64,000 nt of DNA from an uncultured bacterium (GCA_965603595.1 CBFDDP010000002.1:847-64846), one strand, 5' to 3'. Positions 46,779-59,320 are shown, numbered from the stretch's first letter. Made by a program: numbers and translations. The notes: generated from the sequence alone by a model not told the origin.

Positions 46779-47612
46779 ATGGACAGTTATTCGGAGAAAA
46801 TTGATCAGGCGCTGCATTTTCTGGAGGAACAGGCGGTTGGCGATGTGCAAAACGCCATGATTCTCGGCTCCGGGCTGGGTGGGATTGCCGATGAGGTCCT
46901 GGAGGGGATTGTTATGCCTTATGCTGAAATTCCGGGTTTTCCCGTCGCGACCATACCGGGACACCGCGGCGAGGCGATTTTCGGTAAACTGGGTGGTAAA
47001 CCGGTACTTATTTTCAGCGGGAGATTTCATTTCTATCAGGGATTTTCATTACAAGAAGTCACCCTCCCCGTACGGGTGGCGGCCCGGCTCGGCGTGAAGA
47101 ACATGATCATCACCAATGCCTGCGGGGGAATCAACGATGCATTGAATCCAGGTGATATCATGATCATCAGGGACCATATCAATCTCATGGGAAGCAATCC
47201 ACTCATCGGTATCGATACGGGTACCTTCGGGACCCCCTTTATCGACATGAGTGACCCCTACGACGGTGAACTACGAGAAGTTGTGCACGAGCTCGCGTTA
47301 AAAAAGCCTGAGATCGGTGAGCTCAGGGAGGGAGTGTATGTGGCCGTGACCGGTCCGAGCTATGAGACAAAGGCTGAAATTTCCTTTTTTAAACAGGTCG
47401 GAGCGGATGCTGTGGGCATGTCGACAGTACCCGAAGTGATCGTGTGCCGACAGGAGGGCATCAGGGTCATCGGTATATCGGCTGTGTCCAACATGGCGGC
47501 GGGTATACAAAAGGCAGCACTGAGCCATCAGAAAGTACTCGACACGACGGCAAAGATGAGAGCCCGTCTTATTCTTCTGGTCAAGGAACTGCTCGAACAT
47601 GTCCTCACCTGA
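46779..47612 (+). CDS. Purine nucleoside phosphorylase of the PNP/MTAP (trimeric) family.
   Basis: The GSGLGG phosphate-binding loop, ITNACGG and MSTVPE motifs. 277 aa. Confidence 0.75.
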   Translation: MDSYSEKIDQALHFLEEQAVGDVQNAMILGSGLGGIADEVLEGIVMPYAEIPGFPVATIPGHRGEAIFGKLGGKPVLIFSGRFHFYQGFSLQEVTLPVRVAARLGVKNMIITNACGGINDALNPGDIMIIRDHINLMGSNPLIGIDTGTFGTPFIDMSDPYDGELREVVHELALKKPEIGELREGVYVAVTGPSYETKAEISFFKQVGADAVGMSTVPEVIVCRQEGIRVIGISAVSNMAAGIQKAALSHQKVLDTTAKMRARLILLVKELLEHVLT

Positions 47613-50049
47613 AACGGACCCAATGAAAGACCTGTTCAGAGAAGAGGCCATTACCGCCATGCGTGAGGAGATCCGCAGTTCCCGAGGGCAGGAAGTTCTT
47701 TTCTTCGGGTGGATGGATTTTCAAAACAGGGTAGACCGGGTGGAGGTTATTGCCCGGGGCAACGATGAAAGCGTGGGGCTTCCGCTCGAGAGGAGCTATC
47801 TTCCCGATGTCATCATACACAACCATCCCGCTGACAGTGTGACACCCTCCGAGCAGGATATCCGCATATCCTCTCACCTTGCCGACCGCGGTGTGGGGTT
47901 CGTCATCGTCAATAGCTCCTGCAGCGATGCATACGTGGTCGTGGAGCCTGTGGAGAAAAGGGAGCGTACGCCTCTTGACGCAGATGAACTCGCCGCATGG
48001 GTCACAGAAGGCGGCCCCTTCAGCTCTGCTCTGGAAAACTTCGAAGAGCGTGAAGGCCAGAAGGAGATGATCGCACACATATGTGATGCCTTTAACGGGG
48101 ATGCAAGGGCCTTAATAGAGGCAGGAACCGGCATCGGCAAATCGCTCGCCTATCTTATACCCGCGGTCCACTGGTCGCTGACCAATAATGAGAAGGTTGT
48201 TATCTCCACCAATACAATTAATCTGCAGGAGCAGCTGCTCTACAAGGACATACCTGACCTACACTCTGTGATGGACGAGGATTTTTCCTATATCCTTATG
48301 AAGGGACGGGGCAACTACATCTGCTTCAACAGGCTGGACGAGGCGCGTCAGGATCTCTTCTCTCTCATCGATGAGGAGGAACTGCATCAGTTCAATGCAA
48401 TTGTGGACTGGCTGAACACAGCCGAAGAGGAGAGCCTCTCACATCTCCCCTTCATTCCCAAACCCTCCCTCTGGGAAAAGATCAATTCGCAGTCCGGTAC
48501 CTGTGTCGGTGGCAGATGCGCGTATTTCAGTAGATGCCCGGTCAACAGGATCAGGCGGGATGCAGCGCGGGCACATGTTCTCGTTACCAACCACCATTAC
48601 CTGCTGGCCGACGCGCAGCTTGGCGAGGGCAGTGCGTCTCTTCTCCCCTCCTACAGGCGGGTCATTTTCGATGAGGCGCACAACCTGGAGGATTCGGCAA
48701 CTTCCTTTTTTACGAGAATGGTGAAACTCTCCTCGACCTTAAAACTGATGGGCCGTATCTATTCCGGGGCACGGAAGAGCAGGGGATATCTGGTATTTCT
48801 TCAGAAGAAAAAAAGCCTCTCCGACAGTGATACGTTGAAGCGCCTCATGGCTGCCACGGTGGAGGTACGCTCCCTCCTGTTTGACATGTTTGAGAAGCTG
48901 GGGGAGTTTTTCTCGCTCCATACACCGTCAAGCGGAAATGATCGAAGACCCGTGATCGAGATCAACGAGGAGGTAAAAAACAACCCTTACTGGACGCAGG
49001 ATCTTCTCCCGTCCATAGGCCGCTTCTACAGGGGATGCACACAGCTTGCCGGCGACCTGGTCGATCTGCGTCAGATGCTCGATACGAAAACCGATGACAT
49101 GGCCGGACGACAGGTGGACGGTCTCGTTATGGGCCTCATGGAGGCAGCCCATACAATCGATTTTTTCCTCGGCGAGGGCGAAGAGCGATACGTACGGTGG
49201 ATTGAGAAAAAGGCTGAGATAGGGATGGTGGTTGCCCCTGTAGAAATCGGGGATTCATTGCAGGATCTGGTATTTCACAGAATGCGAAGTGCCATTCTGA
49301 CCTCAGCGACTCTCACCGTCGGAGGTAGTTTCCAATTCCTGAAGGACAGGCTTTCTATGGAGGGGACCGATATTGAGGTAAGCATTCCGTCCTCATTCGA
49401 GTATAACCGTCAGATGAAGGTGCTCATTCCCAGCGATGTGGCAGAGCCCGGACATCCCCGCTGTGCAGATGACATCAGCAGGGCAATTCTGGGTATCCTG
49501 CAGAGGACCCGGGGAAGGGCATTTGTGCTTTTTACGTCCTACAAGATGCTCGAGGTCACCCACAACATGATCGGTGATGCCCTGAGAGATATGGGATGCA
49601 CGGTATTCAGGCAGGGGTCGGACTCCAGGAGAAATCTCCTCGATCATTTCAAGGCTGATATACACTCCGTTCTCTTTGGAACCGTGAGTTTCTGGGAGGG
49701 GGTCGATGCCCCCGGTCGTACACTCGAGTGTGTTATCATTACGAAACTTCCTTTCAAAGTACCGACCGAACCGATCATCAAGGCCCGTTCGGGGAAGATA
49801 CTTCAGCAGGGCGGCAATCCCTTTCTCGATTATCAGGTTCCCCTTGCCGTGATCAAGCTGCGGCAGGGGGTCGGCCGTTTGATCAGAAACCGCAGTGACC
49901 GGGGAATTATTGTCATACTGGACCCCCGAATTCTTCTCAAGAAATACGGTTCTATCTTTCTCGATTCCATTCCCACCTCCAACGTATTTCAGGGAACACT
50001 GCAGGGCGTTCTCGAGCAGACTGAAGGCTTCATCGGCATTACTCCTTGA
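47599..50049 (+). CDS. dinG: DinG/Rad3-family Fe-S DNA helicase with an N-terminal RadC-like JAB/MPN domain.
   Basis: The N-terminal HNHPADSVTPSEQD fits the RadC/JAMM HxHx7Sx2D motif. Walker A GTGIGKS, DEAH box DEAH, and an Fe-S Cys cluster (C..CVGGRC..C). 816 aa. Confidence 0.8.
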   Translation: MSSPETDPMKDLFREEAITAMREEIRSSRGQEVLFFGWMDFQNRVDRVEVIARGNDESVGLPLERSYLPDVIIHNHPADSVTPSEQDIRISSHLADRGVGFVIVNSSCSDAYVVVEPVEKRERTPLDADELAAWVTEGGPFSSALENFEEREGQKEMIAHICDAFNGDARALIEAGTGIGKSLAYLIPAVHWSLTNNEKVVISTNTINLQEQLLYKDIPDLHSVMDEDFSYILMKGRGNYICFNRLDEARQDLFSLIDEEELHQFNAIVDWLNTAEEESLSHLPFIPKPSLWEKINSQSGTCVGGRCAYFSRCPVNRIRRDAARAHVLVTNHHYLLADAQLGEGSASLLPSYRRVIFDEAHNLEDSATSFFTRMVKLSSTLKLMGRIYSGARKSRGYLVFLQKKKSLSDSDTLKRLMAATVEVRSLLFDMFEKLGEFFSLHTPSSGNDRRPVIEINEEVKNNPYWTQDLLPSIGRFYRGCTQLAGDLVDLRQMLDTKTDDMAGRQVDGLVMGLMEAAHTIDFFLGEGEERYVRWIEKKAEIGMVVAPVEIGDSLQDLVFHRMRSAILTSATLTVGGSFQFLKDRLSMEGTDIEVSIPSSFEYNRQMKVLIPSDVAEPGHPRCADDISRAILGILQRTRGRAFVLFTSYKMLEVTHNMIGDALRDMGCTVFRQGSDSRRNLLDHFKADIHSVLFGTVSFWEGVDAPGRTLECVIITKLPFKVPTEPIIKARSGKILQQGGNPFLDYQVPLAVIKLRQGVGRLIRNRSDRGIIVILDPRILLKKYGSIFLDSIPTSNVFQGTLQGVLEQTEGFIGITP

Positions 50050-50097
50050 CAATTTAGCATTTATCCATACTATATAGATCGAAGTGAACTCGCCGAC

Positions 50098-52008
50098 ATG
50101 AGGATCCAGCCCTTGGGCAATTTCTATATTACTACACCTATCTACTATGTGAACGATGAGCCTCATATAGGGCATGCCTACTCCACCATACTTGCAGATG
50201 TTCTGTCGCGATATCACCGTCTTTTCGGGGAAGAGGTGTTCTTCTCCACCGGTACAGATGAGCACGGGCAGAAGGTGAAGGAGGCTGCTGAGCGGAGGAA
50301 CATCACCCCTAAGGAACACGTTGACGAGATGGTGACCAGGTTTCTGAAACTCTGGAAGAAGCTGGACATCAGCTATTCCCGCTTTATACGCACAACCGAG
50401 AGACGCCATCAGTTCGTGGTCCAGAGTATGCTTACCTATCTCTATGAGCGCGGAGATATATACTTCGACACCTACGTGGGCAGGTACTGCGTTTCAGAGG
50501 AGCGTTTTTTCACTGAAAAGGACCTTGTCGAGGGTTTCTGTCCCTCCTGCGGCGGTGAGGTCATCACCATCGAGGAGAAGAACTATTTCTTCAAACTTGC
50601 AAAGTACCGGGACTGGCTCACCGATTATATTAAATCCCATGCTGATTTTATTAAGCCCAGAACGAGAAAGAACGAGATACTGGGTTTTCTCAAGAACGGG
50701 CTCACAGATCTCTGCATATCCCGTCCCAAGCAGAGAATGGACTGGGGTATTGAGATCCCCTTTGACAAGAAATTCGTCACCTATGTGTGGTTCGATGCGC
50801 TCATCAACTACGTCAGCAATATCGGCGTGTACAGGGACAACATCTCCTTTCAGAAATGGTGGCCCTGCAATGTACACCTGATCGGCAAGGACATTGTAAC
50901 GACCCATGCTGTGTACTGGCCCATTATGCTCAAGTCCGGTGGTTTCGAGCTTCCTGAAACGATCTTTGCCCATGGCTGGTGGCTGCTCCAGGATGAGAAG
51001 ATGAGCAAGTCAAGGGGCAATGTGGTGAAGCCCATCAAACTCATCGATAGGTACGGACCTGAGTCCTTCCGGTACGTGCTCATGAAGAACATGAGCCTCG
51101 GCTCGGATGCAAGCTTTTCAGAAGAGCTCATGCAGAGTACCATCAATACCGATTTGGCCAATGATTATGGAAACCTGCTCTCCCGCATATTGAAGATGGT
51201 CCACAAGTATTTCGATGGCGTAGTCCCCGAACCTGCCCGGACAGAAGAGCGTTTCGTGAAGAAGGTTGGGTCACTACACAAAAGTGTGAAAAACAATATT
51301 GAAAAGTTGGAGCTGAACAAGGCAATAGATTCCATACTCAATTTTGTAAAATTGATCAATAAGTATATCGAAGACAAGGCGCCCTGGGAGCTGCAGAAGA
51401 ACGGAAAGATTGATGCGTTAAAAACAGTGATGTACACGGCCCTGGAGGCCTTCAGGATCGCCACGCTGTATCTGGCACCCATAATCGTGAAGAAGGCGGA
51501 TGAAGCCCTCTCGCTCATCGGCGGGGAGGCATCAGCCCGTACAGATAAGACAAACGGGGATCCGGAGAGGCTTGCTTGGGGAAAACTCGAGCCGGGGAAA
51601 AAGGTAGGTGAAACCGGGGGGCTGTTCCCCAGGATTCTGGTTGAACCCTCTCGAAAGAAAGGAAAAGAGATGGCAAAGGATGACGGGAGAATCGACATCG
51701 ATTACCTGAAAGAGGTCGATCTCAGAATCGGCACGGTACTTGAGGCTGAAAAAGTCGCTAAATCAAAAAAACTGCTAAGGCTGACTGTGGATATTGGGAA
51801 GGAGAAACGAAACCTCGTAGCCGGTGTTGCCGAGTACTATAAACCGGCTGAGTTGATTGGAAAACAGATTGTCATCGTTGCAAACCTGAAGCCGACAACC
51901 ATTATGGGCATTGAATCCAATGGCATGCTCCTTGCCGCATCAAAGGGGAAAAAGCTTACCGTTCTGAGTGTGGACAGGGAAATCGATCCTGGAAGCGCGG
52001 TAAGCTGA
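50098..52008 (+). CDS. metG: Methionine--tRNA ligase with a C-terminal EMAP/Trbp111-type tRNA-binding domain.
   Basis: HIGH (HIGHAYS), KMSKS, a zinc knuckle (CPSCGGE) and a C-terminal OB domain. Confidence 0.9.
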   Translation: MRIQPLGNFYITTPIYYVNDEPHIGHAYSTILADVLSRYHRLFGEEVFFSTGTDEHGQKVKEAAERRNITPKEHVDEMVTRFLKLWKKLDISYSRFIRTTERRHQFVVQSMLTYLYERGDIYFDTYVGRYCVSEERFFTEKDLVEGFCPSCGGEVITIEEKNYFFKLAKYRDWLTDYIKSHADFIKPRTRKNEILGFLKNGLTDLCISRPKQRMDWGIEIPFDKKFVTYVWFDALINYVSNIGVYRDNISFQKWWPCNVHLIGKDIVTTHAVYWPIMLKSGGFELPETIFAHGWWLLQDEKMSKSRGNVVKPIKLIDRYGPESFRYVLMKNMSLGSDASFSEELMQSTINTDLANDYGNLLSRILKMVHKYFDGVVPEPARTEERFVKKVGSLHKSVKNNIEKLELNKAIDSILNFVKLINKYIEDKAPWELQKNGKIDALKTVMYTALEAFRIATLYLAPIIVKKADEALSLIGGEASARTDKTNGDPERLAWGKLEPGKKVGETGGLFPRILVEPSRKKGKEMAKDDGRIDIDYLKEVDLRIGTVLEAEKVAKSKKLLRLTVDIGKEKRNLVAGVAEYYKPAELIGKQIVIVANLKPTTIMGIESNGMLLAASKGKKLTVLSVDREIDPGSAVS

Positions 52009-53698: not shown

Positions 53699-53929
53699 AT
53701 GGACTTTCCTGAGGAACACGGGGACCCTGAGGTTTCTAGTGATGTAGAAGAATCGGAAGATCTCGACACTGAACCCTGCATCAACAAGACTTTCGTTTGT
53801 GAGGATTGTGACTTCCGCTGGCAGGAAAAGATATATCCGGAAAGAAACGACTTTCCGGACTACGAGGACGAGCTCGGCGGTGTCCATGCCTGTCCAATGT
53901 GTGGCTCTGTGAACGTCTCGTTCTATTAG
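53699..53929 (+). CDS. Small acidic zinc-ribbon protein (CxxC...CxxC).
   Basis: 76 aa with a very acidic N-terminus, CEDC at residues 44-47 and CPMC at residues 65-68. The end overlaps the miaB upstream region. Confidence 0.45.
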   Translation: MDFPEEHGDPEVSSDVEESEDLDTEPCINKTFVCEDCDFRWQEKIYPERNDFPDYEDELGGVHACPMCGSVNVSFY

Positions 53930-56665: not shown

Positions 56666-59320
56666 ATGGCCATGCAGACCCCACTGATGGAACAGTACAC
56701 CCGGATCAAGCGGGAAAACGATGACTCCGTACTCCTCTTCAGACTGGGTGATTTCTACGAGATGTTCGAGAAGGATGCGGTGTACGCCTCGAGGGTCCTC
56801 AACATTACACTCACCAACCGAAACGGCATTCCAATGTGCGGTTTTCCCTTTCATGCTGCTGACACCTACATTGCAAAACTGCTGGGAGAGGGCAACAGAA
56901 TAGCTATTTGTGAACAGACAGAAGACCCCTCTCATGCGCGTGGTATTGTTAAACGGGAGGTCGTGGAGATTATTTCACCGGGTATTATTACCGATCCTGA
57001 GCTTCTGGACAACAAGAGCGCGAACTGCATCGCAGCGCTTCTCGGTACTGAGAGTAAGGGAGAACGGAAACTTGCAGTCGCATCGCTGGATGTTTCCACC
57101 GGTGAGTTTGTGTCGAGTCTTATCCGCGATGGAGATGTGATTGACCATGTGCTGAATGAAATCGAGGAGAACGGCATACGGGAAATCATCTATCCCGAAT
57201 CCCTCGATGAAGGGTCACTGCTGTCTGGAATTTTGGGCGGGGTCAGGAAGATGTATGCCGATGTGGTATTCCGCTCGAGGGAGGATCATCTCTTCAACGC
57301 TACGGATGCAGAGAGGTCACTTAAAAAGCATTATGCAGTTAAGAATACGGATGTATTCGAGCTGCGAGATAAGCTGGAAGTCACGGCCTGTGGTTCGCTG
57401 CTCTCATATGTGATGCAAAATGTCAAGCAGGAACTGAGGCATGTGCAGTGGGTGAGAGGTATTCAAAGAGAGCGGGCGCTGTTCATTGACAATGCCACGA
57501 AAAAACATCTGGAACTCACGCAGAATCAAACAGACGGCGGTAGTGCAGGGACTCTTCTCCACATCCTGGATCGAACCCAAACGGCAATGGGTGGACGCCT
57601 CATGCGCAGGAATCTGAGCAGCCCCTTCGGTACGAAAGAGCAGATTCAGGAACGGCTGCAAAAGGTATCCTTTTTCTATAAAAGAGGAGAAGCGGCGTCA
57701 TCAGCCAGGTCCTACCTTGCATGCATACTGGATATCGAACGCATCGTGTCCAAACTCTCGGTGGCAAAGGGGAATGCCCGTGATGCAATCGGATTGAAGG
57801 ATTCACTTCGTGCTGCTGCCGGGATGCGGGATGGGTTGACTGCTGTGGGTACGGAGCTCTTCCAGAGGGAACTGGAGGGGCTGGGCAATTTCAGTGGAAT
57901 CATCGACCTCATCGAAAAAGCAATCGATGCTGCACCGCCATTGAGTGTACATGAGGGGCGGATAATTCGGGATGGCTATGATGAACAGCTCGACAGGTAT
58001 CGAAGGCTTGGGCGTGAGAACAGGGAATGGATAAACAGGTATCAGCTGGAGGAACAGCGTCGACATGGCATTGCATCACTGAAGGTGCGGTACAACAAGA
58101 TCATTGGCTATTATATCGAGGTCACAAAACCAAACCTGCACCTGATACCCGCACACTATATCAAGAAACAGACCCTCGTCAACGCGGAGCGTTTTACGAC
58201 CGAGGAACTGGAGGAACATGAGACGCTTCTCATGGAGGCCAGGGACAAATCGGACACACTTGAGTACGAACTTTTCGAAAATATTCGAAGGGAAATCCTG
58301 CAGCATATGGAAAGGCTGTATCGGGCCGCGGAGGTGATTGCTTCTGTAGATGTGTGTGTAACTCTTGCAACTGGGGCCAAGGATAACGATTATACCGAGC
58401 CGGAAATAGTAGAGGAAAACATCATTGACATTGAAGGGGGGAGGCATCCCGTTGTGGAGGCCCTCGGTGAGGAGGCATTCATTGCCAATGACCTTGTCCT
58501 CAACGACAGTGACCGTCGTATCATGATTCTCACCGGACCAAATATGGCCGGTAAATCGACCTTCCTCAGACAGGCGGCCCTCATTATCATAATGGCGCAT
58601 ATGGGAGGTTATGTGCCGGCCAGACGAGCCCGCATAGGACTTGTCGATCGTGTATTTTCCCGAATCGGTGCCACTGACCGGCTCATCAAGGGCGAATCCA
58701 CCTTTCTTGTGGAGATGATCGAAACTTCGCGCATCCTCCACTATGCAACGGAGCGAAGCTTCATCATAATGGATGAGATCGGGCGTGGCACATCCACCTA
58801 TGACGGCCTTTCGATCGCCTGGGCAGTCCTCGAGTATCTGCTCGACGATACGGTTGGGGCGAAAGTACTGTTCGCCACTCATTATCATGAAATTACGGCC
58901 TTGAGAGATCGCTACGGTATTGTCAATTGCAATGTGACTGTGAAAGAGTGGAACAACAATGTGATTTTCCTGCGAAAAATCGTGCCGGGATCAGCCTCAA
59001 AAAGCTACGGTATAGAGGTCGCACGAATGGCGGGTATCCCTGACAGTGTAATCGAAAGGGCGAAATCCATTCTCAGCAGACTGGAAACAAATTTTGGAGG
59101 ACATATCCCCCTCTTTGTGGGAGAGAGAACCGATAGACCCGGCGGTCTTCAAGGGGATAGGGAAATCACCGATAGGGCGAAGCCCGATACACAGCTCGAC
59201 CTCTTTCCCTCCCCATATGAGATACTCATGAAGGAACTGGGGGAGGTTGATATAGAAAGTATAACGCCTCTTGAGGCGCTCAATATTCTCGATCGGCTGA
59301 AAAGAAGCATCTCAACTTGA
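56666..59320 (+). CDS. mutS: DNA mismatch repair protein MutS.
   Basis: Mismatch-binding N-terminus (GDFYEMF), Walker A GPNMAGKST, DEIGRGTST, and a C-terminal HTH. 884 aa. Confidence 0.95.
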   Translation: MAMQTPLMEQYTRIKRENDDSVLLFRLGDFYEMFEKDAVYASRVLNITLTNRNGIPMCGFPFHAADTYIAKLLGEGNRIAICEQTEDPSHARGIVKREVVEIISPGIITDPELLDNKSANCIAALLGTESKGERKLAVASLDVSTGEFVSSLIRDGDVIDHVLNEIEENGIREIIYPESLDEGSLLSGILGGVRKMYADVVFRSREDHLFNATDAERSLKKHYAVKNTDVFELRDKLEVTACGSLLSYVMQNVKQELRHVQWVRGIQRERALFIDNATKKHLELTQNQTDGGSAGTLLHILDRTQTAMGGRLMRRNLSSPFGTKEQIQERLQKVSFFYKRGEAASSARSYLACILDIERIVSKLSVAKGNARDAIGLKDSLRAAAGMRDGLTAVGTELFQRELEGLGNFSGIIDLIEKAIDAAPPLSVHEGRIIRDGYDEQLDRYRRLGRENREWINRYQLEEQRRHGIASLKVRYNKIIGYYIEVTKPNLHLIPAHYIKKQTLVNAERFTTEELEEHETLLMEARDKSDTLEYELFENIRREILQHMERLYRAAEVIASVDVCVTLATGAKDNDYTEPEIVEENIIDIEGGRHPVVEALGEEAFIANDLVLNDSDRRIMILTGPNMAGKSTFLRQAALIIIMAHMGGYVPARRARIGLVDRVFSRIGATDRLIKGESTFLVEMIETSRILHYATERSFIIMDEIGRGTSTYDGLSIAWAVLEYLLDDTVGAKVLFATHYHEITALRDRYGIVNCNVTVKEWNNNVIFLRKIVPGSASKSYGIEVARMAGIPDSVIERAKSILSRLETNFGGHIPLFVGERTDRPGGLQGDREITDRAKPDTQLDLFPSPYEILMKELGEVDIESITPLEALNILDRLKRSIST

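Follow-up and report, generated by a model that had tools for sequence, protein, structure and literature searches.

What does a RadC-type JAB domain do at the front of a DinG helicase? The question is met at a gene lying at 47599..50049 on the given (+) strand of a stretch of 64,000 nucleotides of DNA from an uncultured bacterium (GCA_965603595.1 CBFDDP010000002.1:847-64846), which we call the window and whose positions are counted from its first letter. An earlier reading of the window, made from the sequence alone (the sequence-only reading), had proposed that this gene places a RadC-like JAB/MPN domain in front of a DinG-family iron-sulphur (Fe-S) helicase. We found a single open reading frame (ORF) with an N-terminal match to the RadC family over its cut-off, in agreement with that proposal. 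The JAB zinc-hydrolase site of its product (E32, H74, H76, S84, and D87) is intact and invariant, or nearly so, across the family to which it belongs. The sequence-only reading had also supposed that the fusion fits no described family, the known N-terminal fusions of DinG being the DnaQ-like exonucleases of Firmicutes. This is not the case, as the fusion was described in 2011, 2017, and 2025. The protein is an ordinary orthologue of the catalogued RadC-like DinG family, whose fusion is already known.

The RadC-JAB domain fused to DinG was first noted, in spirochaetes, by Iyer et al. in 2011 (PMC3239186). It was described again in 2017 by the same group (PMC5512222), and a review of 2025 (PMC11981726) defined the "RadC-like DinG" subgroup. 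With the fusion in the literature since 2011 and named in 2025, the window sequence adds little and opens no new question itself. RadC is among the most widespread bacterial proteins without a known activity (one paper is entitled "RadC, a misleading name?"), and the fusion to DinG ties its type of JAB domain to a motor with a known substrate, single-stranded DNA (ssDNA). Whether the domain of the fusion is a nuclease or a peptidase matters for the RadC family as a whole and possibly for the bacterial removal of proteins stuck to DNA, a prospect already raised by others.

A RadC-type JAB domain with an intact catalytic site

The gene at 47599..50049 (+) is a complete RadC-like DinG gene. In the ORF listing, it is one unbroken frame of 816 amino acids plus a stop codon, starting with ATG. 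Its product matches the Pfam families RadC, DEAD, DEAD_2, ResIII, and Helicase_C_2, and more than 100 homologues of full length (810-870 amino acids) were retrieved from 5.8 billion proteins. The RadC-type JAB/MPN domain, delimited by PF04002, an AlphaFold2 model, and Foldseek, covers approximately residues 14-118 (47638..47952, +). Its PF04002 (RadC) match scores 30.5 bits (E-value 3.8e-7) for a gathering cut-off of 22.1, and the score of the Prok-JAB family is under its own cut-off. A profile search of the N-terminus had been proposed with RadC as the expected outcome, and it returned PF04002.

The AlphaFold2 model of residues 1-145, computed with 36 homologues as input, has a predicted local distance difference test (pLDDT) score of 91.9. 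The elements of the domain are a helix (residues 15-27), strands at 33-39, 45-53, and 71-75, a helix at 85-95, and strands at 100-104 and 111-115. The best match of this model in the PDB, as found by Foldseek, is RadC (2QLC), followed by the Rpn11 of Caldiarchaeum, AMSH/Sst2, the proteasomal Rpn11, and the JAMM1 of Pyrococcus. The top 50 PDB matches listed are all RadC 2QLC or JAMM/MPN proteins. When the PDB was searched with the sequence of the same residues, it returned just RadC 2QLC, with an E-value of 0.19 that is too weak alone.

The catalytic residues are those of a JAMM site. The peptide IIHNHPADSVTPSEQD, which the sequence-only reading had rightly quoted but placed at residues ~75-100, occupies residues 72-87 and gives H74-x-H76-x7-S84-x2-D87. 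The motif itself, H74-N-H76-P-x6-S84-x2-D87, which comprises the zinc ligands and the Ser, lies at 47818..47859 (+) and occurs a single time when the window is translated in all six frames. The upstream Glu that had been expected to accompany this signature is E32, within GQEVLFFGW. Its codon (47692..47694, +) encodes the predicted general base of the site. The query was aligned by MAFFT to 114 homologues (37-99% identity). H74, H76, S84, and D87 are present in all 115 sequences, and E32 is Glu in 114 and Asp in one. Such invariance suggests that the JAB domain is an active enzyme.

The helicase part was said to be complete, which our analysis bears out. The Walker A motif (motif I, GTGIGKS) spans residues 176-182 (48124..48144, +), with K181 invariant and S/T182 conserved in the same 115 sequences. 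The DEAH box (motif II) spans residues 358-361 (48670..48681, +), where D358 and E359 are invariant, A360 is kept in 114/115, and H361 in 113/115. Between them, the Fe-S cluster domain (48322..48537, +) has Cys242, Cys307, and Cys313 in 115/115 sequences and Cys302 in 114/115, a spacing that we take to be the four-Cys pattern of the Fe-S domain of DinG and XPD. The C-terminal motor domain, matched by Helicase_C_2 (PF13307, 153 bits, E-value 9.5e-45), covers residues 631-793 (49489..49977, +), and the other Pfam matches in the helicase part are DEAD, ResIII, and DEAD_2. The AlphaFold2 model of the full-length protein has a pLDDT of 86.5 and a predicted template modelling (pTM) score of 0.79. 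It is matched by Foldseek to the DinG of E. coli (6FWR), the DinG of S. aureus (9II8/8ZEF), XPD, and CasDinG, and a sequence search of the PDB agrees with a DinG/XPD identity for this part. Among the NCBIfam models, the best scores for the helicase are those of YoaA (NF053712, 542.9 bits), PRK08074 (ExoDinG, 492), and E. coli DinG (414). All are under the equivalog cut-offs, which argues for a distinct DinG subgroup.

The JAB domain is joined to motor domain 1 of the helicase by a linker of residues 119-148 (47953..48042, +), with a helix at 128-135, as delimited by the AlphaFold2 models and by the start of the PRK08074 alignment. This alignment begins at residue 129 of the protein and at position 239 of the profile, past the exonuclease domain of the latter. 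Hence, the JAB domain sits where ExoDinG carries its exonuclease.

The start of the gene (47599..47612) overlaps the end of the upstream gene, which encodes a purine nucleoside phosphorylase (PNP), by exactly the 14 nucleotides announced in the sequence-only reading. The closest homologues (65-99% identity) share an N-terminus reading MSSP or MS-S, which speaks for 47599 as the position of the start ATG. A second in-frame ATG occurs at 47623 (M9), and translation from there would keep the whole JAB domain, as had been foreseen. A protein 99% identical to this one is already public, where it is annotated as DinG. On the other strand, an ORF of 338 amino acids (49393..50409, -) extends over the 3' end of DinG and the 5' end of metG. 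It has no Pfam match and faces two genes that are well supported, and hence is most likely spurious.

The JAB domain and the helicase are conserved as a unit

The fusion was to be sought in other genomes, and it proved widespread. Many homologues lacking a precomputed PF04002 match carry the motif, and all 36 homologous N-terminal domains that were scanned individually match PF04002. The JAB domain and the helicase hardly differ in their identity to the query (0.50 and 0.49), and the two values are correlated (r = 0.94). This equality and this tracking point to a single unit under equal constraint. We then scanned one genome per GTDB species and found this subtype of the JAB domain in at least 598 species. 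The JAB domain is contiguous with the DinG helicase in 80 of the 80 loci that were fetched. Among these, 69 are full length, and the remaining 11 are incomplete or have an unmatched C-terminal end, mostly because they come from contig ends.

A profile of the JAB domain retrieved 1,321 representatives out of 1.84 billion clusters, 569 of them with an E-value of at most 1e-10. The best 150 of the 1,321 matches are DinG fusions of ~800-920 amino acids or shorter pieces. This small number of representatives, with DinG fusions or their fragments on top, suggests that the JAB domain of RadC-like DinG is a divergent sub-lineage of the RadC-type JAB domains. The short matches were treated as fragments. 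One of them, P0128 (147 amino acids), was inspected as a candidate stand-alone protein of this subtype and was rejected as such, being the first piece of a frameshifted DinG. It belongs to a metagenome contig of ENA (L081, 4001..6405), where gene calling divides the RadC-like DinG into three genes, of 147, 428, and 240 amino acids. The neighbouring dihydroorotate dehydrogenase gene is likewise split, which argues for frameshift errors in the assembly. Short database entries that look like stand-alone JAB proteins may often be artefacts of this kind.

Relation to described DinG and RadC proteins

The RadC-like DinG proteins of Desulfuromonas soudanensis (A0A0M4DKS9), Spirochaeta thermophila (E0RQL2), and Brachyspira hyodysenteriae (A0A3B6VGN9) have the same domains in the same order as the window protein, the same E/HxH/D catalytic residues, and the same Fe-S domain with four Cys. 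Table S1 of PMC11981726 gives E0RQL2 and a Brachyspira protein as RadC-like members with four Cys ("4C"), and the window protein shares its phylum with two of the listed members. It is 41% identical to E0RQL2, with which it is collinear over residues 9-398 (E-value 3e-100), 399 residues of E0RQL2 being available. The profile, the fold, the JAMM residues, the helicase core, the four Cys, and this collinearity all place the protein in the subgroup. We found no substantive difference from the listed members, and it is another orthologue of them.

The closest relatives outside the subgroup differ at the N-terminus. ExoDinG, the DinG of B. subtilis and S. aureus (8ZEF, 9II8), has a closely related helicase core (492 bits with PRK08074, Foldseek TM-score ~0.67) and also an extra N-terminal catalytic domain at the same point of attachment. 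That domain is a DnaQ-like 3'-5' exonuclease of RNase-H fold, whereas that of the window protein has the JAB/MPN fold. Furthermore, the ExoDinG of Bacillales lack the full set of Cys (PMC11981726), of which the window protein keeps all four. An identity as ExoDinG was rejected, as the alignments of PRK08074 and TIGR01407 leave out everything before profile positions 237-239 and score under their cut-offs, and the N-terminal fold is JAB.

YoaA of E. coli (NF053712) is the best-scoring helicase model, and the predicted fold of RadC-like DinG is reported to be most like that of YoaA, including its C-terminal alpha-7 helix (PMC11981726). YoaA has no N-terminal domain and has HolC (chi) as its partner, and HolC is reported to be absent from the organisms carrying RadC-like DinG (PMC11981726). 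The protein is not YoaA itself: the score of 542.9 bits stands against a cut-off of 680, and an N-terminal JAB domain is present. Canonical RadC (YicR, UPF0758; PF04002, 2QLC) belongs to the same JAB sub-clade by profile and has the same HNHP...PS..D motif. It is a protein of ~220 amino acids with a helix-hairpin-helix (HhH) domain at its N-terminus, and the window protein matches it in the JAB core only. Its scores of 22.5 bits with NF000642 (cut-off 180) and of 17.7 with TIGR00608 (cut-off 133.85) led us to reject an identity with canonical RadC.

A possible peptidase or nuclease carried by a helicase

If the choice of substrate is left aside, the identity as RadC-like DinG and the general logic of a hydrolase delivered by a helicase are very probably correct. 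By analogy with E. coli DinG, YoaA, and XPD, the motor would move 5'->3' along ssDNA using ATP, and the protein would serve to repair DNA or to free blocked replication forks. The motor would carry the JAB domain in cis to whatever blocks the helicase, and the zinc-activated water of the domain would then hydrolyse the obstacle.

Concerning the obstacle, we lean slightly to a peptidase over the published idea of a nuclease. Tentatively, the JAB domain may trim proteins stuck or cross-linked to DNA, as a one-protein analogue of FANCJ plus SPRTN. The leaning has several reasons. All JAB enzymes that have been characterised are peptidases, whose site of action is the C-terminus of ubiquitin or of a related protein (PMC5512222), and the JAMM motif of the JAMM/MPN+ isopeptidases (Rpn11, AMSH, Cap3, JAMM1), E...HxH...S..D, is found here, with the Ser of the signature (S84) invariant. 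Structure searches return only peptidases, also in PMC11981726. Dedicated nucleases are encoded separately beside the gene in two lineages (see below). The JAB domain is acidic across the RadC-like DinG family (median isoelectric point 4.7, net charge -8), which is weak evidence on the substrate. Finally, there are precedents for proteases tethered to DNA. FANCJ, a 5'-3' Fe-S helicase of the XPD/DinG family, is coupled to a DNA-dependent metalloprotease: it unfolds DNA-protein crosslinks, likely before their degradation by SPRTN. ArdC unites in one bacterial protein an ssDNA-binding domain and a Spartan-like protease, and RadC-type JAB domains are found fused to ArdC modules (PMC3239186). The analogy is functional only. 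SPRTN and ArdC are zincin-type proteases, not JAB proteins, and FANCJ and SPRTN are separate proteins. A fully specified version, in which a DNA-dependent peptidase is driven 5'->3' on ssDNA into crosslinks, trapped topoisomerases, or other adducts and trims them, is somewhat unlikely, if mildly favoured by our data. If the domain were a peptidase, the fusion would be a single-polypeptide bacterial counterpart of FANCJ plus SPRTN and would provide the first biochemical function for the large RadC family.

Several points weigh against our reading of the protein. RadC-type JAB domains are not known to have protease activity, and canonical RadC has no reported biochemical activity in the literature searched. 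Our literature searches found no experiment on RadC-like DinG or on RadC catalysis, and PMC11981726 states that experimental studies of the subgroup are lacking. Mutants of radC in E. coli and in the pneumococcus have no repair defect (Attaiech 2008, as cited in PMC11981726 and PMC3239186). The motor itself calls for caution, as the ExoDinG of S. aureus has exonuclease activity and no detectable helicase activity (PMC11981726), so that helicase activity cannot be assumed from motifs alone. There is no universal gene partner across the 68 loci whose neighbours were clustered, just lineage-specific upstream genes on the same strand, and the PNP neighbour has no obvious link to repair. Lastly, it has been argued that RadC-type JAB domains probably lack the groove in which the tail of ubiquitin fits (PMC5512222) and that their position matches that of the nuclease domains of sister DinG proteins (PMC3239186), both of which favour a nuclease.

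The nuclease is the strongest rival, and we regard it as a possible reading, if a doubtful one. Here, the JAB domain would be a nuclease or nucleic-acid processor replacing the 3'-5' exonuclease of ExoDinG, in a helicase-nuclease that degrades or trims the unwound strand (Iyer et al. 2011, 2017). In PMC3239186, the RadC-fused DinG helicases were found to be close to the exonuclease-fused versions, and this "non-homologous domain displacement" led to the suggestion that the JAB domain might be a nuclease. The domain is indeed at the N-terminal position of the DnaQ-like exonuclease, and other DinG subgroups carry exonuclease, pseudo-exonuclease, endonuclease, or HNH nuclease domains (PMC11981726). 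The known fusions of RadC are all related to DNA (HhH, primase, and ArdC-N), and the JAB fold falls within the deaminase-like fold, whose members act mostly on nucleotides (PMC3239186, PMC5512222). However, cutting of nucleic acids has been shown for no JAB/MPN domain, the separate nuclease genes upstream in two lineages would be partly redundant with a JAB nuclease, and the domain is strongly acidic.

Other roles of the JAB domain, catalytic or not, are unlikely even when taken jointly. One such reading, which we consider improbable, is that the domain does not act on the substrates of the helicase at all, being a module for regulation, oligomerisation, or partner binding, or else an unrelated hydrolase of small molecules or nucleotides. 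Inactive MPN- scaffold domains are common in eukaryotic complexes, fusobacterial versions that have lost the zinc ligands are noted in PMC3239186, and the conserved, overlapping PNP neighbour in Spirochaetota could hint at nucleoside chemistry. Yet the conservation of the five catalytic residues across the alignment is unexpected for a pure scaffold, and the linkage with PNP is limited to one phylum.

A role in anti-phage defence or in ubiquitin-like conjugation is very improbable. The JAB domain would then be a deconjugating isopeptidase, as is Cap3 in the cyclic-oligonucleotide-based anti-phage signalling system (CBASS) or its equivalents in Bub operons, or the helicase would be the CasDinG (Csf4) of type IV CRISPR systems. 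PADLOC does report "typeIV_DinG" matches of up to 423 bits, and the Foldseek matches of the JAB domain include the structures 8TYX and 9EA4 of bacterial deubiquitinases acting on ubiquitin-like proteins (Ubl). However, the PADLOC matches fall on the helicase part and reflect generic DinG homology. CasDinG itself was rejected, as TIGR03117 scores 93 bits for a cut-off of 400 and the gene has housekeeping neighbours. We found no cas/csf, Ubl, E1, or E2 genes in the window, nor any among the conserved clusters of neighbours in the 68 loci. Furthermore, searches of 72,556 plasmid records and 50,697 phage records for this JAB subtype returned no match. Given this absence, we rejected a mobile-element, anti-restriction, or defence reading, and together with the neighbours, among them the nuclease genes of two other lineages, it leads us to favour a housekeeping or repair role.

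That the fusion is an artefact of annotation or assembly, with the true start past the JAB region or two genes merged, is scarcely credible: the overlap with the previous gene and the second in-frame ATG could suggest it, but no stop codon separates the domains, that second ATG is 65 residues ahead of the motif, close relatives also have the MSSP N-terminus, the JAB domain matches the helicase in conservation, and the same architecture of ~810-870 amino acids recurs in over 100 independent homologues and 69 genomic loci that are complete.

Genomic context

In the window, the gene is part of a tight run of genes on the same strand: map (methionine aminopeptidase), asnS, an M23 peptidase gene, the PNP gene, the RadC-like DinG gene, metG, the gene of a CapD-like enzyme, and miaB. 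The PNP gene (46779..47612, +) matches NF006054 with 344 bits. PNP is directly upstream and on the same strand in 17 loci of Spirochaetota including the window (L001-L005, L007-L011, L026, L033, L057, L062, L065, and L068 being the others), mostly overlapping the start of DinG by 4-50 nucleotides. The JAB domains of these loci are ~39-57% identical to that of the query. This linkage could be a conserved translational coupling or simply an old synteny, and it shows no evident functional link.

Two other lineage-specific neighbours are nucleases. In 12 loci from KSB1, Calditrichota, and metagenome-assembled genomes (MAGs) labelled "Cytophagia" (L016, L028, L035-L038, L053, L054, L064, L069, L071, and L074), the gene directly upstream on the same strand encodes a nuclease of the beta-CASP/MBL fold. 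This nuclease is similar to TIGR04122 ("ligase-associated DNA damage response exonuclease"; 243 bits, for a cut-off of 325) and matches the Pfam family RMMBL. The remaining flanking genes vary in these loci, and no ligase gene is nearby in the four of them whose flanking genes were read. The pair of the beta-CASP nuclease and RadC-like DinG looks like a two-gene nuclease-helicase module. In two Halanaerobiales-type loci (L072 and L073, from MAGs of Bacillota/Halanaerobiaceae), a gene resembling endonuclease IV (AP_endonuc_2, 163 bits) shares the strand of RadC-like DinG and lies 10 nucleotides upstream of it. Here again a DNA-repair nuclease is paired with DinG in a single lineage, and only in these two loci. 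The PNP, beta-CASP, and endonuclease-IV-like neighbours are small additions to what is known, and are not mentioned in the available passages of PMC3239186 and PMC11981726.

A scan for promoters and terminators between 43000 and 53800 gave counts no higher than in shuffled sequence and no evidence of a promoter or terminator dedicated to the DinG gene; the sole promoter-like site with 10 of 12 matching positions in this interval precedes metG. A tRNA scan of the window returned none. A complete mutS gene (MutS domains I-V; 56666..59320, +) has the same orientation as the DinG gene and lies ~6.6 kb downstream of it. The two are separated by several unrelated genes, and an operon link is not implied. 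Between the CapD-like gene and miaB, there is an ORF of 76 amino acids (53699..53929, +) that runs into the GTG listed as the start of miaB. This small ORF is without a Pfam match and carries two pairs of Cys (CEDC...CPMC), resembling a zinc ribbon.

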